Notes under the pieces: generated by a model
Seen by the model: the letters and a program-made list of their open reading frames with translations, nothing else
Database searches by the model: none
Told to the model about the DNA's origin: nothing
Shown here: positions 37,573 through 54,639 of the stretch, piece by piece
Layout of the letters: the number at the start of each line of letters is the position of its first letter
Numbering within the stretch: position 1 is the stretch's first letter
Program-made: the position numbers and the translations under genes
Source: a virus
Taxonomy: Duplodnaviria; Caudoviricetes
Length of the DNA: 64,000 nt
Reading direction: 5' to 3' (one strand)
Virus record (IMG/VR): IMGVR_UViG_3300025011_000016

Positions 37573-38043
37573 ATGGATAAATTCGTTAATTATGGTGGTG
37601 TTAACCTTAAGGTAAAAGATAATGGTGATGGTACTTGGTCAGCACAAGCTGTATTAGATGGAACTGATGCTACTGGAGTAACTCAGGAATCTGGTGGTAC
37701 TGGTTCAAGAGGTTGGTTATCTAGTATTTATAATGTTATGAAAGGTATACAAACTACTATTAATGCATTTATTGCAGGCAATACTGTTAATGAAGTTAAA
37801 CGATATACATTAGTAGCTAATACTGATACATTATTTACATTTTCAGGTGTATGTAAAAGATTTGATATTCTTAATGTTGGACCAGGTGATGCTTATTATG
37901 AGGTCGATGGGGTTGCATCTGTTAATGGTACAACAAGTACTTTATTACCTGCTGAAACAGGATATGGTATATCTATGCAGGGAACGACAATCCATGTTAT
38001 TTCTACAGGAACCCCAATTGTTCAAATTGTGGGGGTGAGATAA
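37573..38043 (+). CDS. Probable tail-associated structural protein
   Basis: Gly/Thr-rich and beta-rich, late promoter, RBS aaaggag. AT-rich jumbo-phage codon style. Confidence 0.55.
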   Translation: MDKFVNYGGVNLKVKDNGDGTWSAQAVLDGTDATGVTQESGGTGSRGWLSSIYNVMKGIQTTINAFIAGNTVNEVKRYTLVANTDTLFTFSGVCKRFDILNVGPGDAYYEVDGVASVNGTTSTLLPAETGYGISMQGTTIHVISTGTPIVQIVGVR

Positions 38044-40068
38044 ATGGAAGGTTATTTTAAATTACCGGGTACTGTAAAAGCAGATCTTGCTGCGTATAAG
38101 GCAGAAACTACGGCACAGTTAGCTGATAAAGCACCGCAAATAGCATTAGATATTGAGAAGGCAAGGATTAATAATTTAGTCGCGGTCACCAATGCTTCTT
38201 TTTACGAAAAATCTACAGCAGGGATAACTGGAGTATTATTAATAGTAGAGAGTGGAGCAACTACAGGACAAATTAATCTTGCAAGCGTTACACCAGTAGC
38301 GACAGGATATACAGCAGTAGCGGGTGATTATGTATTACTTGTTTATGGTGTAGCGAGTGGTAGTGCAGAATTAATAGATCTGAAAATTGGGGCCGATGGT
38401 ATAACCTATGGAAGTGCAGGGGAAGCAGTCAGAGGGCAAATTGGTAAATTAAAGACAAATATTGGTGGTGAAAAAGATTGGACACACTTAACGGGTGATT
38501 ATGTATTACAAACTGTACCGGCAATAAGCGGTGCAAGATGGTCTGCTATGAATAGCGACCTTGGACATACATTAATTCTTTTAACCAGCCTATTATACTA
38601 CTATTACACAGAACCTATCGAAGTTAAGGCGGGAGATAAATTCCATATTCAGGTTACAGGTAGCAGGGCTGATTTGTACCATGTCATTTACTTGGATGAA
38701 GATTCTATCTTCATTGGGGGGGAATGTTATGGTGACGGTGTATGGGATGTTGAAATTACTATACCAGAAAACTGTAAATACTTAGAATTCAATATATTAG
38801 CAAATTTGTCTGTGTATAAGTACATTTATGACAGACTTGCAACCGAAAAGTATGTTGAAACAAATTGCGTTACATTTTCAGACAAGTCTTTAACATACCA
38901 AGACCCTGCTAATAGATGGAATGTAGGTACACAATCGGTTGTCGATGAAATGACAACTTATCTAAACAGTGTGAAATTTGATAAGGATACATTTGATGTC
39001 CGCTATAAAATGACGACTAATTTTTCCCATGATTCCAAACTTGCGATTGATGCAGTAAATGGTTTAGCCTATTGCTGTATGCTTACTAATGATGTTGGAA
39101 CAGGAGATAGCCCAACGTATACAGACGCATATTCTATTTTGGAAATAATTGATTTGGATAGTTGGACATTACTTGGTAGGCATGATGCTGGTAAGTATGG
39201 GGATGCGGTTGGCGGTTTTACAATTATCTCAGGTGTTGGCGGTGCTACACCAATTATCATTGATGGGGATATAACAGTTACGTTTTGCGCGAAACTTAGT
39301 GACAACAAATGGTATATGTTGCGTAAAGTGTTTGATGTAGCAACTAGCACTTTCGGAGCTACTGCTATTTGCCAGTTTACTCACGAGGCGGCGACCTTTG
39401 ATTTTACAACTGATAATATTAGCTTAAATGTATTCACGCTTCCAAGTGTAGACCACTTTCCTAATGTTGGGGCACAGGCGAGTAAACACACTGATGGTTA
39501 TTATTATTGTGGCTTACTGTTCAATAGTTTGATTCCAAACAGTATTTTGATCAGGACACTAGATTTCTTAACCTTTGAATATTGGCTTGAACCTCAATTC
39601 GTTGATTCGCAAGCTAACTGGGAGGGTTCTTGCTTCTGCAAAGATGGTTATCTGTATTACGCATTAAGGCAAATTTCAAATAGCACAGAACCATTCAATA
39701 CTAAAATACTCTTATCTAAAATCAATCTTACGTCTAAGGCGATAGTGGAACAAATTAAGATTCAAGATGCTGGGTCAAAAGGATATTTTTTCACAGATGG
39801 TACTAATATTTATTTGGTTCATAGCACATGTGCAAGACAAAGAACTGAAATATTAAAAATAGACCCTTCCAATCTTGGTAATAGCAGTATCGTTGTTCAA
39901 GGAACGATGCAATCTGTCTATCCAAACATTGAAGCATACAATGGATATTATTACTTGCTTGGAACTGGAAATAGTTCGACTAGTGTATATCTTAGAAAAT
40001 TTGACTTGTTGCCTTACGCAAATCTTGATATATCAAATAGAGTGGTAAGTTTATTTGATATTCAGTAG
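38044..40068 (+). CDS. Tail fibre / receptor-binding-like protein with probable C-terminal beta-propeller
   Basis: TTAQLADKA and ELIDLKIGADGITYGSAGEAVRGQI segments are recalled from Firmicutes phage tail proteins. Aromatic, beta-rich C-terminus. Confidence 0.55.
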   Translation: MEGYFKLPGTVKADLAAYKAETTAQLADKAPQIALDIEKARINNLVAVTNASFYEKSTAGITGVLLIVESGATTGQINLASVTPVATGYTAVAGDYVLLVYGVASGSAELIDLKIGADGITYGSAGEAVRGQIGKLKTNIGGEKDWTHLTGDYVLQTVPAISGARWSAMNSDLGHTLILLTSLLYYYYTEPIEVKAGDKFHIQVTGSRADLYHVIYLDEDSIFIGGECYGDGVWDVEITIPENCKYLEFNILANLSVYKYIYDRLATEKYVETNCVTFSDKSLTYQDPANRWNVGTQSVVDEMTTYLNSVKFDKDTFDVRYKMTTNFSHDSKLAIDAVNGLAYCCMLTNDVGTGDSPTYTDAYSILEIIDLDSWTLLGRHDAGKYGDAVGGFTIISGVGGATPIIIDGDITVTFCAKLSDNKWYMLRKVFDVATSTFGATAICQFTHEAATFDFTTDNISLNVFTLPSVDHFPNVGAQASKHTDGYYYCGLLFNSLIPNSILIRTLDFLTFEYWLEPQFVDSQANWEGSCFCKDGYLYYALRQISNSTEPFNTKILLSKINLTSKAIVEQIKIQDAGSKGYFFTDGTNIYLVHSTCARQRTEILKIDPSNLGNSSIVVQGTMQSVYPNIEAYNGYYYLLGTGNSSTSVYLRKFDLLPYANLDISNRVVSLFDIQ

Positions 40069-40107
40069 GTCGTAGTTGACGCAAACCCCGACACAGAGAG
40101 GTGAAAA

Positions 40108-41925
40108 ATGGCACAACTAAAAATATTAAACCCCTCCCTCGAACCTTTGGCGATACTACTTAACGTAGTGTCGCCTTCTGTTTCCGAAGAAATAAACCGC
40201 GAGTTCACGGCATCGTTTCAAACCATTATCGACGGCGACAAAAGCGACTACATCACCTATCAAAACATCGTCGAAATTGAAGGTAACTATTTTAACATCG
40301 TCTACACGAAAGACAACCACAACCCCGACGGCACACTGACAATCGACGGTGAGTGTGAGCATGTGAGTTATGATCTAATCGGCGACGAAAACGACCCGGC
40401 AGACCCTATGATACATGAGTATTACGCAAATGTTGGCACCCCTACAGCGTTACTGACAACGTTGCTTTCCGGCACAGGCTTTACGGTAGGACAAGTTGAT
40501 TTTACTGCGCTGACAACTATCGCGATTAACGAAAAGGTTAACAAGCGGGGAATACTCATAACGCTGGCTGAACAGTTAGGCGGGGAACTAAAGTTCGACA
40601 AGTACGAAATATCCCTATTGTCGCGCAGGGGAGCGGATCGTGGGCTAGGATTTAGGTATCGTCGAAATCTAGCTAGTATGTCGCGGATCACAGACAACCG
40701 TAACAAGGTTGATGGATTGCCTACCGTGACATACACCACGGATGTTGTCGAATTGGAGTTCGCTGAAGGGCATGGGACTGACGATCATTACGAGTTGGGG
40801 GATACAGTTTATCTATTTGACGACCAGTTAGGCATTGCAAATGTGCCACTTAGAATTATCAAGGAGTCTCACAACCCTCAGCAACGTATGCAGGGAAACG
40901 TGACTATATCAAATCTCTCGGACGCATTCGTAAAGGATATACATGACACGGTGGCTGGGTTGCAACAGAGTACAGTGTATAAGGGAGCGTTGTACAACGG
41001 GGTAAGGATAAGTGCATACGATGGGTTCGTGGCGACTAGGACGGACAATAAAGTCAGGACGACACTCAATGCAACGAATGGAATTTCGGTACAAAGTGGC
41101 GATGGTTTAGGTACGTGGGTAGACAGGTTTTACGTCGATATTGACGGCAACACTCGCCTGAAAAATGCTTTTATTGACATAACTAGTGGTGACACATATA
41201 TCCTGATTAGCCCGACTGAGGGGATCAGGATTACAAAGGATAGTGTCGATAAGTTTTCCTTAGACACCAATGGCAATGTGCAGCTAAAAGACGCATCAAT
41301 CAACATAACCAGTGATGGCACAAACATAATTATTAGCCCGGTCGAAGGGATTAAAATTACCAAGGACAGCGTCGATAAGTTCTATGTCGATGTCAATGGA
41401 AATCTAACCTTTGACGGCAAGATGATGGTAACTGACTCAGGGAATACTTTGGCGGAAATATTCAAGGATACTAACGGAGGGATTCTAAATCTCTATGATT
41501 TGTCAGGAAACCTGAATGTAAAGATCGGAGTAGAATCAGGAGTTGCAGGGAATACAGGGGGAACGCTGGTCTTGTTTAAGGATGTTCCTCCCGGATCTGA
41601 TCCAATCAATTTTAGAAGGGTAGAACTTGGCATTAGCAGTACGTTTGACTGTGGGGCTGCAAACTTTAGAGACACAAGCAACAAGGTTAGGGCTAGTATT
41701 CAAGCCGACTCTTCCGCTGGCCCGTATATCGGGATAAGGGATTCCGCAGAAGTAATGAAGAGTTATATTTCCGAGTTTTTTGGCAAAATAGACAACGAAT
41801 TAATTGCAACTAGGCCTTGGGTAGATATCCAAATAGCCGCCTACGACCTGGTTATAAAGGAATGGGTTGTAGAGCAAATAGCGGCTGTAATATTTACACA
41901 CATTGAGGAATTCCACACACCATAA
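40108..41925 (+). CDS. Siphovirus tail protein (prophage tail / Tal-like)
   Basis: GELKFDKYEISLLSRRGAD.G..FRYRRNL and YELGDTVYLFD..LGI...RIIKESHNP. Lies just before the lysis genes. Confidence 0.8.
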   Translation: MAQLKILNPSLEPLAILLNVVSPSVSEEINREFTASFQTIIDGDKSDYITYQNIVEIEGNYFNIVYTKDNHNPDGTLTIDGECEHVSYDLIGDENDPADPMIHEYYANVGTPTALLTTLLSGTGFTVGQVDFTALTTIAINEKVNKRGILITLAEQLGGELKFDKYEISLLSRRGADRGLGFRYRRNLASMSRITDNRNKVDGLPTVTYTTDVVELEFAEGHGTDDHYELGDTVYLFDDQLGIANVPLRIIKESHNPQQRMQGNVTISNLSDAFVKDIHDTVAGLQQSTVYKGALYNGVRISAYDGFVATRTDNKVRTTLNATNGISVQSGDGLGTWVDRFYVDIDGNTRLKNAFIDITSGDTYILISPTEGIRITKDSVDKFSLDTNGNVQLKDASINITSDGTNIIISPVEGIKITKDSVDKFYVDVNGNLTFDGKMMVTDSGNTLAEIFKDTNGGILNLYDLSGNLNVKIGVESGVAGNTGGTLVLFKDVPPGSDPINFRRVELGISSTFDCGAANFRDTSNKVRASIQADSSAGPYIGIRDSAEVMKSYISEFFGKIDNELIATRPWVDIQIAAYDLVIKEWVVEQIAAVIFTHIEEFHTP

Positions 41926-41954
41926 GCCATAGGGCTTATTTTTTATGGGTAGCA

Positions 41955-42233
41955 ATGAAAGGATGGCGAAAGGAAGGTGTGCTAATGGAACATCAAGACG
42001 TACTTATGGACATCAGGGAACGCTTAGTTCGCGTGGAAACAAAGTTGGACAACCATAACGGCATCAGGGAAAGACTTGATGCCGCAGAGGACAAGGCAAT
42101 CGAAAACGAGTCTAGATCTAAATCGAATTGCCATCGAATCGACAAGCTAGAGGCTAACCTAACATGGCTCTGGCGCACAATTGCCGGGGCTGTTATTGTT
42201 GCTGGAATTGGGGCATTGGCTATTTTTAAGTAG
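41955..42233 (+). CDS. xhlA: XhlA-family holin/hemolysin-like protein
   Basis: ERLVRVETKLD...RIDKLEANLTWLWRTIAGAVIV. The true start is probably MEHQD. Confidence 0.75.
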   Translation: MKGWRKEGVLMEHQDVLMDIRERLVRVETKLDNHNGIRERLDAAEDKAIENESRSKSNCHRIDKLEANLTWLWRTIAGAVIVAGIGALAIFK

Positions 42234-42244
42234 GAGGAATTGGT

Positions 42245-42913
42245 TTGCCTAAGGTATACATTAGTCCAAGTACGCAGGAAATGAACCGAGGAGTATCGCC
42301 GTTTGGTACTGAAGAAGCGGAAACGAACAAGATTGCGGATGTGCTTATTCAGCTATTGAGCAACGATGGGAGATTTCAAGTAAAACGTAATTCTACAGCT
42401 ATGGACCCTTACCAATGTGCTGAAGACTCTAACAACTTCGGGGCTGATATTCATGTCGCAATCCATAGCAACGCCGGGGGCGGAGAGGGGACGGAGGTTT
42501 TTGCCTATGGTGCAGGTTCAAACTCAGACCGATTAGCCAAGTGTCTTTACAGCAAGGTTGCGCCTCTTAGCCCGGGAAATGACCGAGGAGTGAAGTTTAA
42601 CCCCAAGCTAATCGAGGTAGGAAACAGTGTCAACGCCACGTCCTGCTTAATCGAGCTGGCATTTCACGATGAAGCTAACGATGCAAGATGGTTGGTTAAC
42701 GGGCGAGATTCAATTGCTATGGCTCTCTACCATGGGATTTGTGACTATTTTAGTTATGATTACATGGAGATTAAAGAAGCGTCTGAGGTTAAAAAAACCA
42801 TTGCGCCTGACGATATTTACATAAGCGTAAGGGCGCAAAAACACTTGGCAGATCAGGCGATAAAGGATATTAACAAGCTGGGGTTTGCTGCCAAGATTCT
42901 TGAGTTGGCATAA
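42245..42913 (+). CDS. N-acetylmuramoyl-L-alanine amidase (Amidase_3) endolysin
   Basis: KVYISPS, E.E.N, ADIHVAIHSNAGGG.GTEV and LIELAFHD. Confidence 0.88.
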   Translation: MPKVYISPSTQEMNRGVSPFGTEEAETNKIADVLIQLLSNDGRFQVKRNSTAMDPYQCAEDSNNFGADIHVAIHSNAGGGEGTEVFAYGAGSNSDRLAKCLYSKVAPLSPGNDRGVKFNPKLIEVGNSVNATSCLIELAFHDEANDARWLVNGRDSIAMALYHGICDYFSYDYMEIKEASEVKKTIAPDDIYISVRAQKHLADQAIKDINKLGFAAKILELA

Positions 42914-42986
42914 ATCAAGGTAAACCATTGACCAGCCTATAATGCATGGTTTACCTAGGTAAACTTGTAAACTTTTAGTAAACCTT

Positions 42987-43178
42987 TTGAAAGGAGCGAC
43001 AGCCATGGAAAATAAAGCAACACTAATCGCGATCGGTGGGGTTGTTGTCATAGGGCTCGGAGTCTTGGCTCAATCTGTAATTACCGGGCAGGCCATGGAC
43101 CCGGAGCTGATAAAGTTAATCGTAACTGGTCTTGTAGGATTTGCTAGTGGTGCGGCTGCGGTAAAGATAGCTGGTTAA
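42987..43178 (+). CDS. Small membrane protein, possible holin
   Basis: Two hydrophobic helices, located in the lysis cassette. Confidence 0.6.
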   Translation: MKGATAMENKATLIAIGGVVVIGLGVLAQSVITGQAMDPELIKLIVTGLVGFASGAAAVKIAG

Positions 43179-43190
43179 ATAAGGACATAA

Positions 43191-43224
43191 CGAAAGCCCT
43201 CTCCGCCTTGGAGGGGGCTTTTTG
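43191..43224. terminator. Bidirectional terminator
   Basis: aaagccctctcc-gcct-tggagggggctttt between convergent units. Confidence 0.75.
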
Positions 43225-43228
43225 CATA

Positions 43229-43390
43229 TTAGAAATTGAACAACCTCCCCAACAACTTACCCAACAACCTACGTTCCACTCGTTTTACTACAGTCTCGCG
43301 CTTAACCGCATTTACATCCCCCAGAACCTTAGCCAAACCATATAGGATGCCTCTGGTTTTTCCGATTGTTAGACCTTTTTTCTTAGCCAT
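43229..43390 (-). CDS. 53-aa cationic amphipathic peptide, absent from the ORF track
   Basis: MAKKKGLTIGKTRGILYGLAKVLGDVNAVKRETVVKRVERRLLGKLLGRLFNF. Start overlaps the upstream stop. Confidence 0.65.
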   Translation of the reverse strand: MAKKKGLTIGKTRGILYGLAKVLGDVNAVKRETVVKRVERRLLGKLLGRLFNF

Positions 43391-43763
43391 TTTTAATCAC
43401 CTTCTTTCTGACATAATCACTCATGGTCACATTGCTTGCGACGGCCGCTTCTCGTATGGCCTCCCATTCTGCATCGGTGAATTTAATATGGCGACTGATG
43501 CGAGGATTTTTGGATTTCTTTCGCCCGGATCCTTCGCGTTTTCCACCATGCCTTGTATTTTCTACCCAAACACCGTCTTCGACAACGTAATCATTCTGGG
43601 AATTAACCCCGAACGATTGACCTTCCTGAGACGGCCTGAAATCTTCGCCTTCAAGTAATTCGTTTTTTCCATCCCATTGAGCTGGTTTTCCGTCGACATA
43701 ACCGATCGTGTAGCCGCCATCGTCAACCAGTTTCTCGCAGAACATCCAGGTTTCAAATCTCAT
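43383..43763 (-). CDS. Protein with C-terminal ribbon-helix-helix-like DNA-binding domain
   Basis: HGGKREGSGRKK...RHIKFTDAEWEAIREAA...MSDYVRKK. Confidence 0.6.
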   Translation of the reverse strand: MRFETWMFCEKLVDDGGYTIGYVDGKPAQWDGKNELLEGEDFRPSQEGQSFGVNSQNDYVVEDGVWVENTRHGGKREGSGRKKSKNPRISRHIKFTDAEWEAIREAAVASNVTMSDYVRKKVIKNG

Positions 43764-43765
43764 AG

Positions 43766-44140
43766 TTATTTCTCCTTCCTTTCAACGTATTTCCAAAAAT
43801 CATGATGAAGTTCCGGTTTTCCCTTGAAAACATGATTACAACTACCAACACCAAGGACTCCAACCCCGGTGTAGTATAAGGTGCATATACCGATAGGCCC
43901 CATAAAAGTAAAATACCTATCAACGTGAGATGAACCACCAAAATCTTTATGATTGCGTGATACGGCCTGATGCTGGACATCAACATCCACTATATATTTG
44001 TTTCCGTTTTCATCAGTAATCTCGACGAACTGGTGACATCCAACGCGCTGGTAGTAACATTTCTCCATTCCGCTATACGCCATCCATACTACCGGATGTT
44101 CACTAATGCCTGTTATTTTCATTTTTAAAACCTCTTTCAC
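43766..44140 (-). CDS. Hypothetical accessory protein
   Basis: 124-aa ORF in a leftward operon. Confidence 0.6.
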   Translation of the reverse strand: MKEVLKMKITGISEHPVVWMAYSGMEKCYYQRVGCHQFVEITDENGNKYIVDVDVQHQAVSRNHKDFGGSSHVDRYFTFMGPIGICTLYYTGVGVLGVGSCNHVFKGKPELHHDFWKYVERKEK

Positions 44141-44176
44141 GTGCCGGGTGTTGGCTCCCGGCTGGCCTTTGAGTTA

Positions 44177-44560
44177 CTAAACCAAGTACGCTTGAAAAAC
44201 TCCTTGGAAGTTCTTCTCTGCTACAGTACGAGCTATCAGTTTGTGGTTTTTTCCTGCATCCGTTACAAACTTTACAGTTACGTTTCCTTTTTTCACTCCT
44301 GGGATAACTTCAGTGATGGTAGCATTCTCGTACGCTACGTTGAAGGCTTTAGTTGTTGCCGAAATTCTAGCTCCGACAACCGCATTTAATGAAGTTAATG
44401 GTGTTTTCACGGCTTTTACTCCTTTCTTCAGCGATGCCCACAATGTCCGAAGTGCCAACGCTAAACGAGCCACATAATCCCCAACCATTTGCTTTGCTAT
44501 CTTGTGGGCCTCAACCATCATTTCACGTTTACTTAATTTGATCTTCGTCATTGCGTGCAA
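44177..44560 (-). CDS. Hypothetical accessory protein
   Basis: MVEAHKIAKQMVGDYVARLALALRTLW. First gene after a consensus promoter. Confidence 0.65.
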   Translation of the reverse strand: MHAMTKIKLSKREMMVEAHKIAKQMVGDYVARLALALRTLWASLKKGVKAVKTPLTSLNAVVGARISATTKAFNVAYENATITEVIPGVKKGNVTVKFVTDAGKNHKLIARTVAEKNFQGVFQAYLV

Positions 44561-44582
44561 CCCCTTTCTTTATCTTGATATA

Positions 44583-44611
44583 AGTATACACCTTAACCAA
44601 ATATATGTCAA
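44583..44611 (-). promoter_or_regulatory. Consensus sigma-A promoter
   Basis: Minus strand reads TTGACA-17 nt-TATACT. Confidence 0.8.
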
Positions 44612-44648
44612 CACTTTTTTCAAGATTTCCATAAAATTTTACAAAATA

Positions 44649-44680
44649 AAAAGCCCTCGGCTCATTCCGGGGGCTTTTTG
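44649..44680 (-). terminator. Terminator
   Basis: aaaagccctcgg-ctcatt-ccgggggctttt. Confidence 0.7.
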
Positions 44681-44685
44681 TGGTT

Positions 44686-45018
44686 TTACTTTAAACCAAA
44701 CTGTGCCTTCGTGTTCAACTTATTATTCTGGAACATAACGTTCGCGTTAGCTCCAATGTCACCCTCTCCTTTGTATGTGTACATAACCGTGTGCAGAGCC
44801 CCTCCCTTTGTTCCTGACTCGGACACCACTTCCCCCGGCCCGCCGATGATACTGGTTGCATCCTCGTAACTCATGCCTGTTGCGAGTTGGCCGAATTCAG
44901 CCTTTGTCATGGTCGGCTTGTTACCTGTCGTGGACGGAGCGTCCCCCATCGCGCCGATTGCTACCCCTAAAACTACTAGACCGACTACTCCGATCAATGC
45001 CTTTTTAATAAATCCCAT
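44686..45018 (-). CDS. Exported/membrane-anchored protein, DUF3862/BLIP-like domain
   Basis: N-terminal hydrophobic helix. MTKAEF.QL.TGMSYE....IIGGPGE...Y.Y.G.G..GANANVMFQN.KL..KAQFGL. Confidence 0.7.
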   Translation of the reverse strand: MGFIKKALIGVVGLVVLGVAIGAMGDAPSTTGNKPTMTKAEFGQLATGMSYEDATSIIGGPGEVVSESGTKGGALHTVMYTYKGEGDIGANANVMFQNNKLNTKAQFGLK

Positions 45019-45341
45019 GCAAATCTCTCCCTCGTTTTTTAAATAATGTGATAATTATACCACTAAGACCCCTGCCTTTAAATAGTAACGTTCGGACATT
45101 TCGCATCCCCCACCTTCCCCTACTCAACTCATCCCTGCGCAAATGCCCCTTTTTGCACAATTTCAGAGGGCTTGAGGGAGGTTGGCCGAACAATCGGCTA
45201 TATCATGTTGCTATAACGTTCGCTTTACCTTGTATCCCTTCTTGCGCTCCTTGGGACGAAACATAGGTATAGCTTCATGATGCTCTGGCAGCATGAAAAT
45301 AAATAAGAGTGGGCCGAAAACAATTGCTAAAGTAATCCATG

Positions 45342-45557
45342 TCATGTTGTCACCTTGTCGGACATTGCCAACTTTATCACAAGGGATCGCAACCGGTCTG
45401 CTTCTTCCTTTAATCGTTCTGTCTCACCCAACAACTCCGAGCAAGCCAAGTTTACAGCCGCATTCCTGCTTATCCCGCAGCCCTTAGCGTAAGCGTCTAA
45501 ATCTTTCAAGAGTGGGGCAGAGAAGTGAATTAGTGCGGGCTTCTTTTTCTTTTCCAT
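45342..45557 (-). CDS. CopG-like ribbon-helix-helix protein
   Basis: LIHFSAPLLKDLDAYAKGCGISRNAAVNLAC, followed by a coiled coil. Confidence 0.65.
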   Translation of the reverse strand: MEKKKKPALIHFSAPLLKDLDAYAKGCGISRNAAVNLACSELLGETERLKEEADRLRSLVIKLAMSDKVTT

Positions 45558-45619
45558 GCAACAGCCTCCCTATATCAACATGATATATATTTATGAGGGT
45601 TCGCGGAAAATATGACTGT

Positions 45620-46162
45620 TTACTTGCCAAAGAATCTCCACCAGGGTTTCTTGTTGCGTTGTTGTTGTATTAACTTGATATCATTGAGCCTTTGTAATAC
45701 CTCGTTATCTCTAAGCTCTGCGCTCCTGCGGCCATCCTCGTCCTTCTCGTGAAGCTTCGTGAATCCTTCTTTGAATTCCGCCCTTATGTCCTCAAGTTCA
45801 TCTTGAAGTTGGAGTATAATACGATTCTGCTTGGCTAGTTCTTCAAGCAAGGTATGGCGAATACTATGCACTAAATCTTCCTGTTGCGTTGCCTCGGTGC
45901 TGTTGTCAGGGGATTGTGCTACCAAATCAGTAACAACCCCAAATCGTTTTTCTAGTACCTCTATAATTTGATCATGGTCTAACTTTTTGGTATAAGATGT
46001 CTTAATAATGTTCAGGATTTCAATGGTTGAATCCCTCTCGAATTTAGTAGTTTTACCTTCCCCTTGGGTATTGAAGTAGGGTAGATAGGTATCTTTGTAA
46101 TAGCGACAAGTGCTTATATTTATGTCTGTCAATTCCGAGCATTGCTTGAGCGTGAGATACAC
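45620..46162 (-). CDS. HTH plus coiled-coil protein, pSK1 Par-like plasmid partition candidate
   Basis: N-terminal MerR-type HTH (LTLKQCSELTDINISTCRYY), central coiled coil, amphipathic C-terminus KKPWWRFFGK. Confidence 0.6.
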   Translation of the reverse strand: MYLTLKQCSELTDINISTCRYYKDTYLPYFNTQGEGKTTKFERDSTIEILNIIKTSYTKKLDHDQIIEVLEKRFGVVTDLVAQSPDNSTEATQQEDLVHSIRHTLLEELAKQNRIILQLQDELEDIRAEFKEGFTKLHEKDEDGRRSAELRDNEVLQRLNDIKLIQQQRNKKPWWRFFGK

Positions 46163-46182
46163 GACTTATACACACCCTTTCC

Positions 46183-46314
46183 TGTGGATAACCACCATTG
46201 TATTATTAATAAGATCAACTCTTGTAATAGTATATTTTGTGGGGAAAGATTCTTTCGGGGTCCCCGCAAAGTTCTTTCGGGGAGGGGGAAAGATTCTTTC
46301 GGGGTTGTGGATAA
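46183..46314. promoter_or_regulatory. Putative plasmid-type replication origin
   Basis: DnaA boxes TGTGGATAA at 46183-46191 and 46306-46314 flank an AT-rich tract and three iterons. Confidence 0.75.
46241..46304 (+). repeat. Three iterons with 22-bp period
   Basis: ggggaaagattctttcgggg at 46241 and 46285, variant cccgcaaagttctttcgggg at 46263. Confidence 0.85.
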
Positions 46315-46317
46315 CTT

Positions 46318-46704
46318 TTATCTCTCCCGCATCATCATTTCATAGATGGTATTTGGGCTTATTAACCCCTCTTTTACAGATCGTTCAAGGTGTTCTGTCT
46401 CTTCGGAGCAGAGAAAATACATAACCTTCTCGTCGCCCGGTATTCCAGCCTTAACAATCCATATGTAGCCGTGTTCCTCTAGCCATCGCATCCCGGCTGT
46501 GATGCTCGGCCTTGATAGCTTTGTTAGCTTCAGGAGTTGAGGCATAGCTAGATAATCGCCAATTTTTTCCCATCCCCAACACTTTCGTATAAGGATAAAA
46601 TAGCACTTCATGGCAGCTAGGTTTGTTATTTTAGGCATGAGTTGATCAAAGACAACATTTGGCACTTCGGTAAAATTTTTCTTCGGGCGTGGCAATCTGA
46701 ACAC
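46318..46704 (-). CDS. Small replication initiator (lambda O N-terminal-like winged helix)
   Basis: FTEVPNVVFD...ILIRKCWGWEK.GDYLA..QL..LT.LSR.SI..G..WLEEHGYI. RBS aggag. Directly adjacent to the iterons. Confidence 0.72.
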   Translation of the reverse strand: MFRLPRPKKNFTEVPNVVFDQLMPKITNLAAMKCYFILIRKCWGWEKIGDYLAMPQLLKLTKLSRPSITAGMRWLEEHGYIWIVKAGIPGDEKVMYFLCSEETEHLERSVKEGLISPNTIYEMMMRER

Positions 46705-46881
46705 GACAAAAAACTCCTATCGAATTAATTTAGGAATGGACAGGAGCCGTGCCTATGCTTTATAATAAAACCACAGCACAAAACAACCTATCCAGCAAAC
46801 CCCTTGAGATCACTTTAGCAGGTGGAATCTCAGGGGGTTTTCCTATTTTGCTTTAATTCGACAGGTTAACACTTCAATCCT

Positions 46882-47112
46882 TCAAATCCAAAGAATAACA
46901 TGAATAGCTACACCCACAACGTAAACACAGGCTAGAAGTTTGAGCGTCACATACAGTATTGGTTTTCTCTCAGAGAATGGTAATTTTTCGACATGATGAT
47001 TATTTATATATTCCTGCATATACTCCGGATCTACTAATACCAAATCTTTATCAACAACTACATACTTAAAGAATCCTCCCAAGTCCTTAGAAACAACCAC
47101 ACAGCAAAACAT
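46882..47112 (-). CDS. Possible small membrane protein
   Basis: C-terminal hydrophobic helix. Start uncertain. Confidence 0.4.
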   Translation of the reverse strand: MFCCVVVSKDLGGFFKYVVVDKDLVLVDPEYMQEYINNHHVEKLPFSERKPILYVTLKLLACVYVVGVAIHVILWI

Positions 47113-47194
47113 CCTTTCTATATTGTAATTTATCTTATAATTTCGGCAAATACTTTTAAAATCCTCTAGAATTTTCCTTATCGAGCATAAAGTA

Positions 47195-47227
47195 AGCAGG
47201 TATTTGACTTAACAAATACCCGCTTAT
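47195..47227 (-). terminator. Terminator downstream of the repressor
   Basis: aagcaggtatttg-acttaa-caaatacccgctt. Confidence 0.65.
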
Positions 47228-47240
47228 AATTTTATAGTTA

Positions 47241-47621
47241 TTATTTAGATTTCATCTTTTTTATAGTTTCTAAAAGATCGCGAAGGAAGATCGGGTCAAT
47301 TTGTTCATCGTGTAATTCGCGGGCCAGTATAGCATATGGCAAGCTTTCGCGTGTAGCGAAGAACTCGACAATATCTTCCGGAGGCTCATAGTCTGATATC
47401 TTTATCATTTCCTCGAAGCTCAAGGCGTTATCATCCATAAAGAACCATGTGTTGGTATTAAGAGCTTTGGCTAACTTTTCCAACGCTTCAGTGGCGGGCC
47501 TTTTCTTTCCATTTTCTATTTGAGAAATAAAAGGAGCCGATAATCCGGCCATCTTGGCTAAGTCGGTTTGGCTAAATCCTCTTAGCTCTCTCACATACTT
47601 AACTTTCTCTCCAAAATTCAA
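47241..47621 (-). CDS. XRE-family phage repressor (CI-like)
   Basis: VRELRGFSQTDLAKMAGLSAPFISQIENGKKRP. Divergent from a Cro-like gene. Confidence 0.88.
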   Translation of the reverse strand: MNFGEKVKYVRELRGFSQTDLAKMAGLSAPFISQIENGKKRPATEALEKLAKALNTNTWFFMDDNALSFEEMIKISDYEPPEDIVEFFATRESLPYAILARELHDEQIDPIFLRDLLETIKKMKSK

Positions 47622-47798
47622 AACCTTTCGCCTCCTTTTGCAGTAATATAACCACGGGTAAAATAATTATATTAGGTATATTGCAATGTTGCTCACAGTA
47701 ATATATACTTACGATATGAGGTAGATAGAACAGATAAAACCAATATTTTATTTACCTCTGCCATTACCAAAAGTAATTAAAAAGGTGGTGATAATAAA

Positions 47799-48029
47799 AT
47801 GATAACCGCGAGTAAAGATCAAACCATTGCAATAGTAGGCAAGAACCTCAGACGATTGATTGAATCAAGGGAAGGTCTTACTCAAACTAAGTTAGCCAAG
47901 GATGCTGGTGTATGCTATTCAACGGTTACCGATACTTGCAATTTGCGAAGCGTTCCAAGCGTCAAAGTCCTCGGGGTGCTTGCGAAAACTCTCGGATGCA
48001 GTATGGCAGATTTGTTCAAGGAGGAATAA
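47799..48029 (+). CDS. XRE-family Cro-like regulator
   Basis: GLTQTKLAKDAGVCYSTV...PSVKVLGVLAKTLGCSMADLF. Confidence 0.85.
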   Translation: MITASKDQTIAIVGKNLRRLIESREGLTQTKLAKDAGVCYSTVTDTCNLRSVPSVKVLGVLAKTLGCSMADLFKEE

Positions 48030-48193
48030 TGAAAAACAGTTTTACCATGTCAGCAAGTGAGAATAAAAAGAAAGCTAGGATACCAACCCTAGCGCATTAT
48101 TTTATTCTTACTATCAAAAAGCTTTTCAACTTCAAACAACCCCTTAATGCTTACCAGGCAAAAAGAGGAAGGTTGAAACTGTTACCTGCTTGA
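48029..48193 (+). CDS. Small hypothetical protein
   Basis: ATG overlaps the Cro stop, with RBS aaggagg. Confidence 0.5.
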   Translation: MKNSFTMSASENKKKARIPTLAHYFILTIKKLFNFKQPLNAYQAKRGRLKLLPA

Positions 48194-48409
48194 CGCACTT
48201 CCAGCTCATCAATATTACCAGTATTGATAGACCGAAAGTACGTCGATCGAGCAACGTTGCTCTAATTAATTTGTCCGCTACCAACGAACGATTCAGCCAT
48301 TTCCAGTGGCCGAGTCAAACACCGCCGTAGTTCATAGGGCTTGTTTGCTACGCTCTTGTTTAACTGTGTTCAGTCTACACAATTATCAATGTGGTGTCAA
48401 TAGGGTATT

Positions 48410-48742
48410 ATGACATTTTTGCAAAAAAGTATTAAAAAAGTGATGTTATGTAATCGTTTCGTCAAGGAGGGGAAGGCAATAGAAAAAGCATTAGTAAGTG
48501 AGTTCAAGCGATTAACAGGTTTTAACGGTGGCGATATTGCTAAAAAGTATGGAGTTAGTCGGCAGTTTGTTCATCAGGAGTTAAGTAGTAACACGTTGAC
48601 GCATAAGGCTAGTTCGGCTTTCTTCTTAAATGCAATGATTAACGAAAAGGTTTTAGAACTAAAAAAGCAGGTTCGGGATTTGGAGTTTTTGCAGCTCAGT
48701 ATTGAGGGCAGCGTAACGAATGGGGAGGACAAGCATGAGTAA
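48410..48742 (+). CDS. HTH-containing protein
   Basis: GGDIAKKYGVSRQFVHQEL. Confidence 0.6.
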   Translation: MTFLQKSIKKVMLCNRFVKEGKAIEKALVSEFKRLTGFNGGDIAKKYGVSRQFVHQELSSNTLTHKASSAFFLNAMINEKVLELKKQVRDLEFLQLSIEGSVTNGEDKHE

Positions 48743-49409
48743 TTTAACAACCATTCAAGTCGAAGTTGATCTTGGGGTAAACCCTCACGATGGAGCGGCA
48801 AAGGTTAGCACAAGGTTTATAGCTGATGTGTTCAACAAGGAACATAAGGATGTGTTGGAATCAGTTAGGAATTGTAATTGCAGTAATGAATTCTCGCGGC
48901 GGAATTTTACGCCGTCAACCTACAAGGATTCAAGAGGAAAGAAGCAACCTGAAGTCCTGCTCACGAAAGACGGATTCGCTTTTATTGTAATGGGTTTCAC
49001 TGGCAAAAAGGCTGCTCAATTTAAAGAAGCATATATCAACCGATTTAACGAAATGGAAAAAACCTTAAAAGACCTTAACATCGCAAGGCTCGAATACCCC
49101 GAACTTACGGAAGCAATCAAATCCATGCACGCAGAACCGAAGTTCTTCCATTACTCAAATGAGGCAGACATGTTCAATCAAATTATTTTAGGCATGAAGT
49201 CGAAAGAATTTCGCAGGAAGCACAACCTTGATAAAGGTGATTCAATCAGACCATACCTAACTCCATTTCAAGCCGAGGCAATGAGGAAAATGCAACAGTT
49301 CGACGTAGGCTTAGTTGTGGCCGTTCCTGATTTCGCCGAGCGCAAGAAGATTCTGCGAACCTATTTTATGCAAACTTATTTTCCTGAGACGTTGAAGTTA
49401 AATTCTTAA
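48735..49409 (+). CDS. rha: Rha-family phage regulatory protein
   Basis: VSTRFIADVFNKEHKDVL...Y.D..GKKQPEVLLTKDGFAFIVMGFTGKKAAQFKEAYINRFNEME. Confidence 0.9.
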   Translation: MSNLTTIQVEVDLGVNPHDGAAKVSTRFIADVFNKEHKDVLESVRNCNCSNEFSRRNFTPSTYKDSRGKKQPEVLLTKDGFAFIVMGFTGKKAAQFKEAYINRFNEMEKTLKDLNIARLEYPELTEAIKSMHAEPKFFHYSNEADMFNQIILGMKSKEFRRKHNLDKGDSIRPYLTPFQAEAMRKMQQFDVGLVVAVPDFAERKKILRTYFMQTYFPETLKLNS

Positions 49410-49430
49410 TGCACCAGGAGGGGTCAAGCT

Positions 49431-49694
49431 GTGAAAATTGAGTTTAACGAAGGCGAACCGTTATCCGAAAAAAGTCGCCTTGTACTAATCAATCATGTCA
49501 TCGAAAACACTGACAAGATCGAAGCTATCCATAATTTAGATGGTTTCTCAGATTACTTGCTAAGAACCTTAATGAATGACGAGTGTATAAGCTGCTCTCT
49601 GTGCAAGGTTAACCAAGGGAAGTGCTATGGAAAGATTGGCGGAAATCCTTGCTTAGTATTTAGGCCAAAGGAGGACAAGCTATACACCACCTAA
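49431..49694 (+). CDS. Hypothetical protein (Cys-rich)
   Basis: RBS aggaggg and GTG start. Confidence 0.55.
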   Translation: MKIEFNEGEPLSEKSRLVLINHVIENTDKIEAIHNLDGFSDYLLRTLMNDECISCSLCKVNQGKCYGKIGGNPCLVFRPKEDKLYTT

Positions 49695-49828
49695 AATCCT
49701 GGAAAGTAACCGGTCGTGATCGTTCTCGGAGGCTGGGGTATCAAGAAAAGCAGAGGCTGCAATTGAAGGATGAGCAGGCCAAAGGCAAGATTGAATTGTT
49801 TGTGAAGAAGTTAGTAAAGTAAAGGAGG

Positions 49829-50020
49829 ATGAAAAACTTGAAAAAATGGCAATGGTACACCCTCGGAGTTTTGCTCTATGTAGCGATATTGTCGCTCTCA
49901 TTTAATCAATTTTCTAAAGGAAACGTACAGTATGGATTTTTTTATTCTGTAGCTTCCGGTGTTGTAGGGGCAAGGATTCTTTTAACTTTTATTAAGGATA
50001 GGGCGAAGAAACATAAGTAA
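49829..50020 (+). CDS. Small membrane protein
   Basis: Two hydrophobic segments. RBS aggagg. Confidence 0.6.
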   Translation: MKNLKKWQWYTLGVLLYVAILSLSFNQFSKGNVQYGFFYSVASGVVGARILLTFIKDRAKKHK

Positions 50021-50032
50021 AGGAGGCGCACT

Positions 50033-50257
50033 ATGACTAAGCAAACACTCCAAACCTGCCAATGCGGAAAACCCACGGAATTTCCAGAAGCCCAAGTAAA
50101 AACAACCTGCTCATGCGGTCAAGTCTGGGAAATGGATTGCGGAGGGTATTGGTTCACAAACCTTGTTATACCATTCGCCACTCCAAAGGCTCGGTTTACG
50201 TCTGAAAAGCGCAAGAATTACCCTAAAAGTAACAAGCGGAGGATGGTAAAAAAATGA
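50033..50257 (+). CDS. Small zinc-ribbon protein
   Basis: CQCG...CSCG. Confidence 0.6.
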   Translation: MTKQTLQTCQCGKPTEFPEAQVKTTCSCGQVWEMDCGGYWFTNLVIPFATPKARFTSEKRKNYPKSNKRRMVKK

Positions 50258-50667
50258 GTAGAGATATTAAGTTTAGGGCTTGGGATAAGGACTGCAAAAA
50301 AATATTACCGTGGGAAATGATGGTAACTGGTTTTTTGCAAGGGTTTTTGAGCAAAAAATACAATGTTGAGGTTATGCAATTCTCCGGACTCCATGACAAG
50401 AATGGCAAGGAGATTTATGAGGGGGATATTATTAATCTCATAAATTGCGAAGGAGATTCGATAAATGTAGTCTGCGAGCTTGGAACTGCAAGGAGAAGTG
50501 TAACTAACTGTATCGTAGATATTACTGGCTTTTATTTCAAATTACCTAACGGTAAGAAGTCTTTTCCTGTCGTCAATAACTATCTAGGGAAGCATGATTT
50601 GGAAATATTTGAAATCATTGGAAACATCTACGAAAATCCTGAACTCTTGGAGGATACTAAATGCTGA
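50254..50667 (+). CDS. yopX: YopX-family protein
   Basis: REIKFRAWD-like start, MQFSGLHDKNGKEIYEGDI and EIIGNIYENPELL. Confidence 0.88.
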   Translation: MSRDIKFRAWDKDCKKILPWEMMVTGFLQGFLSKKYNVEVMQFSGLHDKNGKEIYEGDIINLINCEGDSINVVCELGTARRSVTNCIVDITGFYFKLPNGKKSFPVVNNYLGKHDLEIFEIIGNIYENPELLEDTKC

Positions 50668-50930
50668 AAACAATACTAAAACCACTACGCAAGCAGCTAC
50701 TAAAATCCAAGCGAATCAAGCAAGCAGTAACCGACAGCCTCAAGCGCAAGAATCTGGCAGGAGCGTTACTAAACAGCGAATGCGTCCGTATGCCTGAGAA
50801 GTCTGATTGTGTGTTAACGATTGAATATGAGGGGTTCGTAGTTGACTATCACGATGGGCGCATGGTCGGGCAGCGTGGGGTTGTGCCGTTTGTTATGCGG
50901 CCATTGGGGTTGTGGAGGTGGAAGCTATAG
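50661..50930 (+). CDS. Hypothetical protein
   Basis: Translationally coupled ORF in the early operon. Confidence 0.55.
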   Translation: MLKTILKPLRKQLLKSKRIKQAVTDSLKRKNLAGALLNSECVRMPEKSDCVLTIEYEGFVVDYHDGRMVGQRGVVPFVMRPLGLWRWKL

Positions 50931-51877
50931 AGTCCTGGGAGCTGAAGCAGATGCAATCTCTTCCGCTCGAACTAAAGATTATTAAGACGAAATTGCGGAT
51001 TAGGGAATGGTATGAAGCGTGGGATGGTCAAGTATATGTTTCGTTCTCGGGTGGTAAGGACTCAACAGTTTTACTGAAGTTGGTTCGTGAACTTTATCCC
51101 GATGTTCCGGCTGTATTTATGGATACGGGGTTAGAGTATCCGGAGATTAGGGAGTTCGTCGGAACTATTGAAAATGTTGTTACAATCAAACCAAAAATGG
51201 CATTCAATAAAGTTATCGAAAAATACGGATATCCAGTTGTGTCTAAGCAAACATCCGATATAGTGTACAGAATTCGCCACTACAATATTAGCGATAGGGC
51301 GATGAATTACTACTTAGTTGGAAAACCAGAAAGAGGATTGGGCCCAAAGCTATCATTAAAGTGGAGAAAACTACTAGACGCTCCATTCGAGGTAAATTCC
51401 TACTGCTGCAACGTAATGAAAAAAAGACCTGCCAAGATATACGATAAGGATTCTGGAAGGAAGGTAATGACTGGGGAAATTGCTTCTGAAAGTAGAATGA
51501 GATTACAACAGTATCTTGACCGTGGGTGCAATGCGTTTGATGCCAAAAACCCCAAGTCGACTCCATTGGGTTTCTGGACAGAACAAGACGTTCTGCAATA
51601 TATCAAGAAATTTGAGGTTCCATATGCAACTGTGTATGGAGATATTATCGCAGTTAGTGGTGGTGGATTGACGTTAACCGGATTATCGCGTACCGGGTGC
51701 ATGTTCTGCATGTTTGGGGTACACATGGAGAAGGGTGAGAATCGCTTTCAACGCATGGCAAAGACCCACCCTAAGCAATATGACTACTGCATCAACAAAC
51801 TAGGATTAGGCGAAGTCCTGGACTATATCGGCGTAGATTATCGCGTCAATAATCTGTTCGAAGGAGGAACAAAATGA
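50912..51877 (+). CDS. Phosphoadenosine phosphosulfate (PAPS) reductase-family protein
   Basis: YVSFSGGKDSTVLL PP-loop, DTGLEYPE, CCNVMKKRP and RTGCMFC. Confidence 0.88.
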   Translation: MEVEAIESWELKQMQSLPLELKIIKTKLRIREWYEAWDGQVYVSFSGGKDSTVLLKLVRELYPDVPAVFMDTGLEYPEIREFVGTIENVVTIKPKMAFNKVIEKYGYPVVSKQTSDIVYRIRHYNISDRAMNYYLVGKPERGLGPKLSLKWRKLLDAPFEVNSYCCNVMKKRPAKIYDKDSGRKVMTGEIASESRMRLQQYLDRGCNAFDAKNPKSTPLGFWTEQDVLQYIKKFEVPYATVYGDIIAVSGGGLTLTGLSRTGCMFCMFGVHMEKGENRFQRMAKTHPKQYDYCINKLGLGEVLDYIGVDYRVNNLFEGGTK

Positions 51878-52026
51878 AGCAAGGCAAAAACCCGACCCGC
51901 ACCCAAAGTATTCGCCTGAAAAAGCTTGGGCTAGTTCCGACTAATTGGCTCGTCTCGAAGTGCAGCCCCACTGAGTTTGTTGTCGTCCATCGTGTGAGTG
52001 GTGAAGTTAGGAGGTTGGGAGTATGA
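51874..52026 (+). CDS. Small phage protein (50 aa), absent from the ORF track
   Basis: MKQGKNPTRTQSIRLKKLGLVPTNWLV. Coupled on both sides. Confidence 0.6.
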   Translation: MKQGKNPTRTQSIRLKKLGLVPTNWLVSKCSPTEFVVVHRVSGEVRRLGV

Positions 52027-54139: not shown

Positions 54140-54639
54140 TTTCTAGAAAATGGGCAATACCAAATAAAAACACTTTCAGCATCAAGCCGATAGCCGAACT
54201 AATCGAAAGGCATTTGGTAAAAGGATGCACTATAGACCCTTTTGCTAATAGCAACAAAACCGCAACCATTACAAATGACTTAGATACGCAACATGACACA
54301 GATTACCACATGGATGCCTTGGATTTCCTAAAGCAGTTTGAAGATGTCTCGGTAGATATGTGCTTATATGACCCACCGTATTCTCCGCGTCAAGTGAGTG
54401 AGTGCTATAAATCTTTAGATATGACCGTAAATATGCAAACCACACAAGCTAGTTATTGGAGTAATCAAAAGAAAGAGGTCGGCAGGGTCATAAGAAAGGG
54501 AGGAAAAGTGATTACATTCGGGTGGAATAGCGGTGGAATAGGTAAAAAATATGGATTTGAAATAGTCGAAATATTATTGGTTTCCCACGGAGGATGGCAC
54601 AACGACACAATTTGCACAGTGGAAAGGAAGGTTTGTTAA
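54133..54639 (+). CDS. Putative N6-adenine DNA methyltransferase
   Basis: IDPFAN motif and catalytic YDPPYS. Confidence 0.75.
   Translation: MLISRKWAIPNKNTFSIKPIAELIERHLVKGCTIDPFANSNKTATITNDLDTQHDTDYHMDALDFLKQFEDVSVDMCLYDPPYSPRQVSECYKSLDMTVNMQTTQASYWSNQKKEVGRVIRKGGKVITFGWNSGGIGKKYGFEIVEILLVSHGGWHNDTICTVERKVC

Follow-up and report, generated by a model that had tools for sequence, protein, structure and literature searches.

A probable compact, theta-type plasmid replicon in the integrase slot of a temperate phage

We analyzed a 64,000-nt stretch of viral DNA (IMG/VR record IMGVR_UViG_3300025011_000016; hereafter the window, numbered from its first letter), and we propose that a minus-strand cassette at 45342-47112 is a compact theta-type plasmid replicon, through which a temperate phage with no visible integrase would persist as an extrachromosomal prophage. 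We estimate the probability of this reading at about two-thirds. The window is the terminal part of a chimeric metagenome contig, which joins a jumbo phage to 24.1 kb of the temperate phage (39901-64000), whose host would be an uncultured member of the Bacillota. In such phages, the usual occupant of this slot, after the repressor gene and before the lysis genes, is an integrase. Here, the minus strand carries in order a gene for a 76-amino-acid (aa) protein, a structured leader, rep, the putative origin, a gene for a 180-aa protein, and one for a 71-aa probable ribbon-helix-helix (RHH) protein. An earlier note on this DNA, made from the letters alone, had placed a Rep, iterons, and DnaA boxes in the slot, and all are present where it put them. 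The parts of the cassette are as follows (G001 is a close relative described below).

46882-47112, minus strand: gene upstream of rep whose 76-aa product ends in a hydrophobic C-terminus; the syntenic gene of G001 shows 68% identity
46705-46880, minus strand: structured rep leader, whose closing stem abuts the ribosome-binding site
46737-46852, plus strand: putative antisense unit, with a promoter (46737-46766), an ~80-nt RNA (~46772-46852), and a hairpin (46797-46840) followed by a T-run
46318-46704, minus strand: rep, encoding P0001, a predicted 128-aa initiator with a single winged helix (PHROG, Pfam, structural model, and dimer model)
46183-46314, minus strand: putative origin (box, three iterons, AT-rich block, box), in a layout that recurs in relatives
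45620-46162, minus strand: gene for P0002, a 180-aa protein with a MerR-type helix-turn-helix (HTH) and a coiled coil, tentatively RacA/DUF3967/pXO2-68-like and a candidate DNA tether
45342-45557, minus strand: gene for P0003, the 71-aa RHH protein, which matches phrog_18157 (transcriptional repressor, E 2.7e-6)

We picture the cassette working in the following way. In the lysogen, rep would have a transcription unit of its own, read leftward, downstream of cI. The 128-aa winged-helix Rep would dimerize through its invariant N-terminus and bind the three 22-bp iterons that lie past its stop codon, while host DnaA would occupy the two flanking boxes, and together the two proteins would open the AT-rich block. 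Helicase loading would fall to the host machinery, because Rep is missing the C-terminal domain with which O-type initiators of full length recruit the helicase. The ~80-nt countertranscript of the rep leader would limit Rep synthesis and thereby set the copy number. Lytic replication would proceed separately, via an early-operon initiator and a DnaC-like loader encoded at 56343-57954. In what is the least supported step of this scheme, the MerR-HTH/coiled-coil protein may tether or segregate the plasmid.

An iteron array flanked by DnaA boxes follows rep

The first DnaA box (46306-46314) starts 3 nt past the rep stop codon, and three iterons, at 46285-46305, 46263-46283, and 46241-46261, lie within 3-76 nt past it. 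Each iteron is an imperfect palindrome with dyad symmetry, and the array that they form (46241-46305) has a period of 22 and 2.9 copies, its outer two members being identical across 21 nt. A 20-mer of the iteron occurs twice, compared with 0.01 occurrences expected by chance, and no copy was found elsewhere in the window, the lytic replication region included. Between the iterons and the second DnaA box (46183-46191) lies an AT-rich block (~46197-46226) with 80% A+T. The two boxes, both perfect TTATCCACA sequences on the minus strand, make up two of just three such perfect boxes in the 64 kb. The locus thus combines repeats at helical-turn spacing beside rep with DnaA boxes and an AT-rich element, the features by which theta-type iteron replicons are recognized.

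This layout extends well beyond the window. We compared the DNA downstream of rep at 24 loci, with Rep identities of 56-98%, and nearly all of them have two perfect TTATCCACA boxes in the same sense, ~125-135 nt apart, which enclose three repeats spaced by ~22 bp and an AT-rich block. The iteron sequence varies with the Rep lineage (four types were seen), while the DnaA boxes are constant. This is the pattern that would be expected if each Rep reads its own iterons and all of them use host DnaA.

Rep resembles the origin-binding domain of O-type initiators

As for the Rep protein, P0001 matches PHROG replication-initiation O-like families with E values of 4e-10 to 6.5e-10, a tblastn search with it finds annotated O proteins at 3e-7, and a precomputed match to PF04492 (Phage_rep_O) is present on 27 of its 29 homologues. 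Pfam yielded nothing for P0001 besides PF04492, NCBIfam gave no match, and a sequence search of the PDB with a Rep profile returned nothing better than E > 0.2; a weak match to AspA has an E value of 0.37. Most of the remote homologues listed are 220-400 aa long and match via their N-terminal ~100 residues only, which argues that Rep is the origin-binding domain of O-type initiators standing alone. It ends at residue 128, without the C-terminal domain by which full-length lambda-O-type initiators recruit the helicase loader. Nor does P0001 belong to the two-winged-helix RepA/RepE/pi class, as its model has a single winged helix.

That winged helix is modeled with confidence (predicted local distance difference test score, pLDDT, 85.7), and P0001 is predicted to form a homodimer, the dimer model scoring 0.60 compared with 0.02 for the best control. 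A score this high was attained for 20 of 30 proteins that had been solved as pairs and for 1 of 23 that had been solved as single chains. The homodimer runs agreed in at least 87% of their contacts, with a pLDDT of at least 79, and the modeled interface is formed by the invariant N-terminal segment. This fits with dimers of P0001 binding dyad-symmetric sites.

The Rep family consists of 128-133-aa proteins with a mean column identity of 75% (alignment A1), and its members come only from metagenomes and a few Bacillota metagenome-assembled genomes (MAGs). An exhaustive profile search found four cluster representatives at E ≤ 1e-30. Among 185,579 species genomes, the family occurs on four small MAG contigs and never on a chromosome-sized contig, and it is encoded on 19 IMG/VR contigs. 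A plus-strand open reading frame (ORF) at 46110-46424 was considered as a gene and rejected, as it is the antisense frame of the conserved rep and origin.

A putative antisense RNA faces the rep leader

The leader of rep is predicted to be strongly structured, the 186 nt at 46695-46880 folding with a minimum free energy of -62.8 kcal/mol (z -5.2), and its three-helix consensus is retained in nine relatives. Across it runs the antisense unit, which was absent from the earlier note and was added by the present analysis. Its promoter (46737-46766) matches 11 of 12 consensus positions and is directed away from rep across the leader, while the predicted ~80-nt countertranscript has a folding energy of -25.6 kcal/mol (z -3.3). 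Most of the relatives inspected have, in the rep sense, an A-run ahead of the hairpin, which argues that the hairpin is a terminator for the opposite strand. Relatives also retain the antisense -35 and -10 boxes, and compensatory changes are found in 8 of the 11 stem pairs of the hairpin (14 sequences). A search of 44900-47900 against Rfam gave a single match at chance level and no family for the antisense RNA. Taken together, promoter, terminator, and structured leader appear to be laid out as in the Gram-positive plasmids whose copy number a countertranscript controls.

Part of the population differs in this region: position 46753, which lies between the -35 and -10 boxes of the antisense promoter, has a C>T change, and there is a deletion of 1 nt at 46722, within the leader stem.

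The cassette lies in the lysogeny block, apart from lytic replication

The genes and signals that set the context of the cassette are the following.

47241-47621, minus strand: cI-type repressor, 126 aa, heading the leftward lysogeny block (PF01381 HTH_3, E 2e-16; 60% identity to the syntenic G001 gene)
47193-47226, minus strand: terminator-like hairpin after cI, with a 14-pair stem (consensus scan)
56343-57203, plus strand: DnaD/O-like early-operon initiator (phrog_5810, E 1.7e-39)
57178-57954, plus strand: DnaC/IstB-like loader (phrog_50, E 1.2e-45)

The cI-like gene is divergent to a cro-like gene (47799-48029, plus strand), the two forming a switch at 47241-48029. The hairpin after cI suggests that rep is probably in a transcription unit of its own, and a weak promoter-like site (47149-47122, minus strand) lies downstream of this hairpin. 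The 76-aa protein encoded between that site and rep found no match in Pfam, PHROG, or NCBIfam. On the other side of the cassette, tail (Prophage_tail), XhlA, and Amidase_3 endolysin genes reach the lysis end at 42913. Lysis and immunity modules had been described in the earlier note as contiguous, with no integrase or excisionase between them. No such gene indeed intervenes, but the modules are not contiguous, since ~4.3 kb with ten small minus-strand genes separates lysis from the cI/cro switch. Tail, XhlA, and amidase genes beside a putative plasmid replicon, in one stretch of DNA, are a combination expected of a phage-plasmid. The separate lytic initiator and DnaC-like loader, likewise proposed before, are borne out by their PHROG matches. 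Within the early initiator gene, 56691-56777 holds tandem repeats (a 10-mer in 2.9 copies and a hexamer in 7 copies), which may be a lytic origin inside the initiator gene, as in lambda O.

This arrangement bears on a different use of the same DNA, in which the cassette is a real origin for early (theta) or establishment replication after infection, and lysogeny is unstable or absent (pseudolysogeny). Such a role would account equally for the origin features, and it would suit both the lack of a partition motor in the close clade and a Rep so short that it needs host factors. However, the cassette shares the leftward block of cI and is oriented against the early operon, which already has an initiator, a loader, and a probable internal origin. 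Moreover, countertranscript control is typical of copy-number homeostasis, and relatives tie rep to ParM-like or ParA genes. We therefore consider a role confined to infection unlikely, and favor a plasmid replicon that serves the lysogen.

Beside the replicon, at 44686-45082, lies a gene for a BLIP/DUF3862-like lipoprotein of 110 aa (phrog_37750, E 1.7e-26). A promoter-like site of the extended -10 kind (45082-45054) belongs to this gene, which has the look of a lysogenic-conversion moron.

Relatives carry the cassette in the same slot and have no integrase there

The earlier note had advised a search of the rest of the contig for a recombinase; in the temperate-phage part, no gene of 39901-64000 matches an integrase or excisionase family. 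The close clade, defined by a Rep identity of at least 78%, extends this result to nearly whole genomes. It includes G001, G004, G007, and G009, which are 60-68 kb long and 90-100% complete according to CheckV, two of them with terminal repeats, and none of the four carries a tyrosine (PF00589) or serine (PF00239) recombinase. G001 encodes terminase, portal, virion, and tail-fiber proteins as well as a DnaB-like helicase, which shows that it is a whole tailed-phage genome. The cassette occupies the same slot, after cI and before lysis, in G001, L013, L016/L017, and L025 (for L008, L013, L014, L016, and L025, the analysis covered the flanks of the locus). When the window is compared with five diverged relatives, the sole notable DNA similarity (72-77%) is 45635-46886, which is exactly the 180-aa gene, origin, rep, and leader. 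This segment thus behaves as an exchangeable cassette, to judge from the alignments.

Directly after the 180-aa gene, 60-68-kb relatives carry a further cassette of FtsK/SpoIIIE, replication-relaxation, and M23-peptidase genes (L004 13972-16545, in G001; L025 12606-15488), which is absent from the phage in the window and resembles an operon of the Bacillus plasmid prophage RBClin15 (PMC11526630). The cassettes of some relatives hold selfish insertions: in L016/L017, an HNH endonuclease gene of opposite orientation separates the origin from the gene that follows it (L016 3495-4295), and in L025 a TnpB gene comes after the 187-aa gene (L025 11395-12516). As for deposited phages and plasmids, a blastn search with 45300-46900 gave no DNA-level match, and the nearest cultured phages show less than 45% identity in RecT.

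It is also conceivable that the phage integrates, by a recombinase in the rest of its genome or by host Xer, and that the cassette was acquired from a plasmid and has at most an auxiliary role. This idea gains some room from the fact that 24.1 kb of the phage are visible, and from G011, G012, and the Bacillus carboniphilus plasmid discussed below, all of which carry a tyrosine recombinase outside the slot. Set against it are the four near-complete close relatives without tyrosine or serine recombinases, the strong conservation of the cassette (the 75% mean column identity of A1), and the remaining arm, which by synteny would hold packaging and morphogenesis genes. In addition, recombinases of plasmid prophages often resolve dimers (PMC8026635). 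A query with the B. subtilis dif sequence gave no match, which carries little weight given an uncultured host. On balance, integration seems to us less likely still than a role confined to early replication, and an extrachromosomal prophage remains the preferred reading.

Segregation and the points that weigh against a plasmid

The gene after the origin encodes P0002, in whose model a MerR-type HTH leads into a single helix of 80 residues, and which ends in a conserved, hydrophobic C-terminal tail (W-W-R-F-F). It had been called Par-like, a label that does not hold, as it matches no Par family in Pfam or NCBIfam. P0002 appears instead to be RacA/DUF3967-like. A fold search of the Swiss-Prot set of the AlphaFold database (AFDB) gave pXO2-68 (1.4e-3) and RacA (1.7e-2) as its best matches, both with TM scores below 0.45, and an hhalign comparison to a DUF3967 protein gave a weak end-to-end alignment (probability 48%, E 1.8e-4). 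One P0002 homologue matches PF13411 (MerR_1), while P0002 itself has no direct match to DUF3967 in Pfam and none in NCBIfam. RacA is the chromosome anchor of sporulating Bacillus. The MerR-like HTH also made P0002 a candidate excisionase, which we rejected in view of its 180 aa and long coiled coil.

P0003 had been described as CopG-like. The match to an RHH repressor PHROG favors that fold class, but nothing beyond that class supports a role as copy controller. It has a weak match to the BrnA antitoxin (E 0.003) and none in Pfam, it is conserved in the close relative L013, and it is a candidate regulator or antitoxin. One more ORF adjoins its gene.

45211-45345, minus strand: ORF for a 44-aa peptide with a hydrophobic N-terminus and a basic C-terminus, overlapping the RHH stop codon by ATGA

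The 44-aa product matches no family; it might be a small peptide of the membrane that forms a pair with the RHH protein, in a layout like that of toxin-antitoxin systems.

Outside the close clade, rep keeps the company of partition genes. In the distant clade (56-67% Rep identity), seven contigs bear a ParM-like (ALP_N) gene at a distance of 1-3 kb from rep and four carry ParA genes, and metagenome contigs have ParA and a small adaptor gene immediately upstream of rep. This linkage supports a plasmid role for the family. For the close clade, one may speculate that its phage-plasmids segregate without a motor, the RacA-like P0002 tethering the episome to the pole, membrane, or nucleoid; together with the 128-aa initiator and the antisense RNA, this would make a self-sufficient ~1.5-kb cassette swapped among phages of uncultured Bacillota. 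We regard this extension as possible but doubtful.

Several points weigh against a plasmid prophage. A low-copy plasmid normally requires a partition motor, and neither the window nor the close clade shows one of the ParA, ParM, or TubZ kinds. P0001 itself scores 22.8 bits against PF04492, for which the cut-off is 28.7, and its fold search matches only generic winged-helix regulators (MarR/ArsR-type repressors, with TubR also among the matches). Terminal repeats on metagenome contigs fit a circular plasmid and terminally redundant virion DNA alike. Since only the 24.1 kb from the tail tip to an HNH gene are visible, an integrase in the remaining arm is unlikely yet conceivable. Replication, DNA binding, RNA expression, and the plasmid state are all things that we infer from sequence. 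Finally, the presence or absence of a recombinase or partition gene is not diagnostic of a plasmid prophage (PMC8026635).

The fold matches also lend themselves to two other functions for P0001. One is that this short O-like protein is an origin-binding blocker or repressor, which with decoy iterons excludes superinfecting relatives or regulates neighboring genes. Its resemblance to MarR/ArsR-type repressors and its lack of the C-terminal domain of its 220-400-aa relatives would suit such a role. Yet a decoy needs neither perfect DnaA boxes nor an AT-rich block, and nearly all lineages retain both; the iterons have no further copy in the lytic replication region or elsewhere in the window, and the par-gene linkage in relatives does not point to a blocker. 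We find this very unlikely, more so than integration. The other function is that of a partition centromere, with P0001 as a TubR/AspA-like adaptor on its repeats rather than an initiator on its origin. TubR is among the fold matches, AspA is among the weak sequence matches (the E value of 0.37 given above), and repeat arrays bound by winged-helix dimers are typical of centromeres. However, no TubZ or other motor is adjacent, the relatives that bear ParA have a separate small adaptor gene after it, the significant sequence homology is to O-type initiators, and DnaA boxes and an AT-rich block flank the repeats. Of the readings weighed here, a centromere is the least probable, and we retain that of a replication origin read by Rep.

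Comparison with known plasmid prophages and replicons

P1 RepA has two winged-helix domains, and its replicon relies on iteron handcuffing (incA) for control and on ParAB-parS. The Rep described here differs in having 128 aa and one winged helix, with apparent antisense RNA control and no visible motor. In other respects, the likeness to P1 (oriR, RepA) is close: both are temperate tailed phages with separate lytic replication and, here at least in the visible 24.1 kb, without an integration module, and in both the gene of an iteron-binding initiator, here putative, lies beside an origin in which DnaA boxes flank the iterons (PMC7157519, PMC8026635). More generally, plasmid prophages are well established, in P1 and N15, in mycobacteriophages with a replication cassette instead of an integrase (PMC7157519), and in many Bacillus phages (PMC4113786, PMC8026635, PMC11526630).

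As proposed for the phage in the window, the mycobacteriophages RedRock, Miko, Alma, and others are integrase-less temperate siphoviruses, with extrachromosomal prophages and a small clonable cassette (PMC7157519). A RepA-like protein is required by some of their cassettes, while the majority rely on RNA (Wetzel et al. 2020, PMC7157519). In contrast to the present cassette, they have actinobacterial hosts, parABS, and unrelated RepA or RNA-primed origins, and their replication was shown experimentally, whereas the cassette here is known from sequence alone. Closer in host range are IEBH, Bp8p-C, B83, and RBClin15, Bacillota siphoviruses whose genomes are circular plasmids with maintenance genes between repressor and lysis (PMC4113786, PMC8026635, PMC11526630). 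Bacillus plasmid prophages have FtsK/SpoIIIE and replication-relaxation genes beside a rep-like gene, as do G001 and L025. Unlike the phage in the window, the confirmed ones have a ParM-like motor with an RHH/HTH adaptor, and B83 also has Xer recombinases.

A further case is NZ_CP129015.1 (B. carboniphilus plasmid unnamed2; L023/L024), a 47-kb circular plasmid that consists of a complete siphovirus genome. Its repressor-to-lysis region includes an O-like winged-HTH protein and a DUF3967 protein, then the FtsK/SpoIIIE and replication-relaxation genes. The Rep-like protein is 351 aa long, with 31% identity to Rep over 83 residues. Annotated only as a plasmid, this element is probably an unrecognized phage-plasmid of a cultured Bacillus. 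It also carries an AimR arbitrium receptor, a HicAB pair, and a tyrosine recombinase inside the tail module.

With lambda O, Rep shares a homologous winged-helix N-terminal domain (30-36% identity to O-like proteins of Pasteurella and Acinetobacter phages), and with ori-lambda the putative origin shares dyad-symmetric iterons, probably bound by dimers, and an adjoining AT-rich region. Lambda O recruits P-DnaB through its C-terminal domain, and the lambda origin, contained in the O gene of the early operon, is not known to need DnaA boxes. Here, in contrast, the N-terminal domain stands alone, and the origin, flanked by DnaA boxes, comes after the gene, which belongs to the lysogeny block. Control would resemble that of the countertranscript RNAs (ctRNAs) of pT181, pIP501/pAMbeta1, and pMV158, with a short antisense RNA that has its own promoter and intrinsic terminator and a structured rep leader, although the putative ctRNA here matches no Rfam ctRNA family.

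Phage-plasmids are common but poorly sampled outside the Enterobacteria and the Bacillus cereus group, and few of them have a known prophage replicon. The lifestyle proposed here is thus already known, but the type of replicon has not been described before. What is new is the one-domain initiator of ~130 aa, the stereotyped origin of box, iterons, AT-rich block, and box after its gene, and the antisense RNA unit outside Rfam. The cassette would represent a small, sharply bounded replicon family that marks integrase-less temperate phages of uncultured groundwater Bacillota. If the cloned cassette replicates, it would rank with the smallest known iteron replicons and would serve as a convenient vector module in Bacillota and as a sequence signature for plasmid prophages in metagenomes. 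It also raises the question of how an initiator that is only an origin-binding domain fires an origin with host DnaA alone.

Two genomes are joined in the contig

The chimeric nature of the contig is evident from its composition, as G+C is ~30% up to ~38 kb of the window and ~44% from 40 kb onward. In other assemblies, 39901-64000 is found as a standalone 24.1-kb contig that starts at 39901. One such contig is 100% identical to the window across 39901-51925, and a second matches 53415-64000 and stops ~21 nt beyond the window's end. The join is at the following place.

39901-40083, no strand: junction, ~183 bp common to the jumbo and temperate phages, at which assembly fused the genomes

Contigs of four groundwater runs (X1-X4) were placed on 36000-52000 to follow depth. 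At 40054-40083, depth falls from 54-66 to 12 in X1 and X2, from 322-342 to 29.5 in X3, and from 7.4 to 0 in X4, in which the jumbo phage is present without the temperate element. The drop is 4.5- to 11-fold where it does not reach 0, and in all four runs the jumbo-phage contig continues past 40083 with other sequence. This shows that the assembler joined two genomes via the ~183 shared bases. The earlier note had taken the element for a prophage maintained as a plasmid. Its core survives, in that a plasmid replicon in the integrase slot is the best reading, but the DNA is a fragment of a chimeric contig and not a prophage in a chromosome.

In its context (38044-40108), the shared stretch, which has one single-nucleotide polymorphism (40042), corresponds to the 3' ends of a 674-aa tail-fiber-like gene of the jumbo phage and of a temperate-phage gene upstream of the tail-tip protein. 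This common receptor-binding end may mean that the two phages use the same host. The depth of contigs also rises 2- to 8-fold over 46680-48815 (leader, cI, cro, and the region upstream of Rha), which suggests that this region is common to more abundant related phages in the same samples.

The visible 24.1 kb (39901-64000) span the tail-tip gene, lysis, the lysogeny block, the early operon, and the HNH gene; packaging and head genes are absent from them, and synteny suggests that the arm beyond is the packaging and morphogenesis module. Seven contigs carry the HNH gene, and these are the window's own contig or contigs of 20-50 kb. The one other HNH-bearing contig that was read (L018; compare 63868-64000 in the window) stops ~154 nt past the HNH gene, and this may be the physical cos end of the virion DNA, as in cos phages with an HNH-terminase arrangement.

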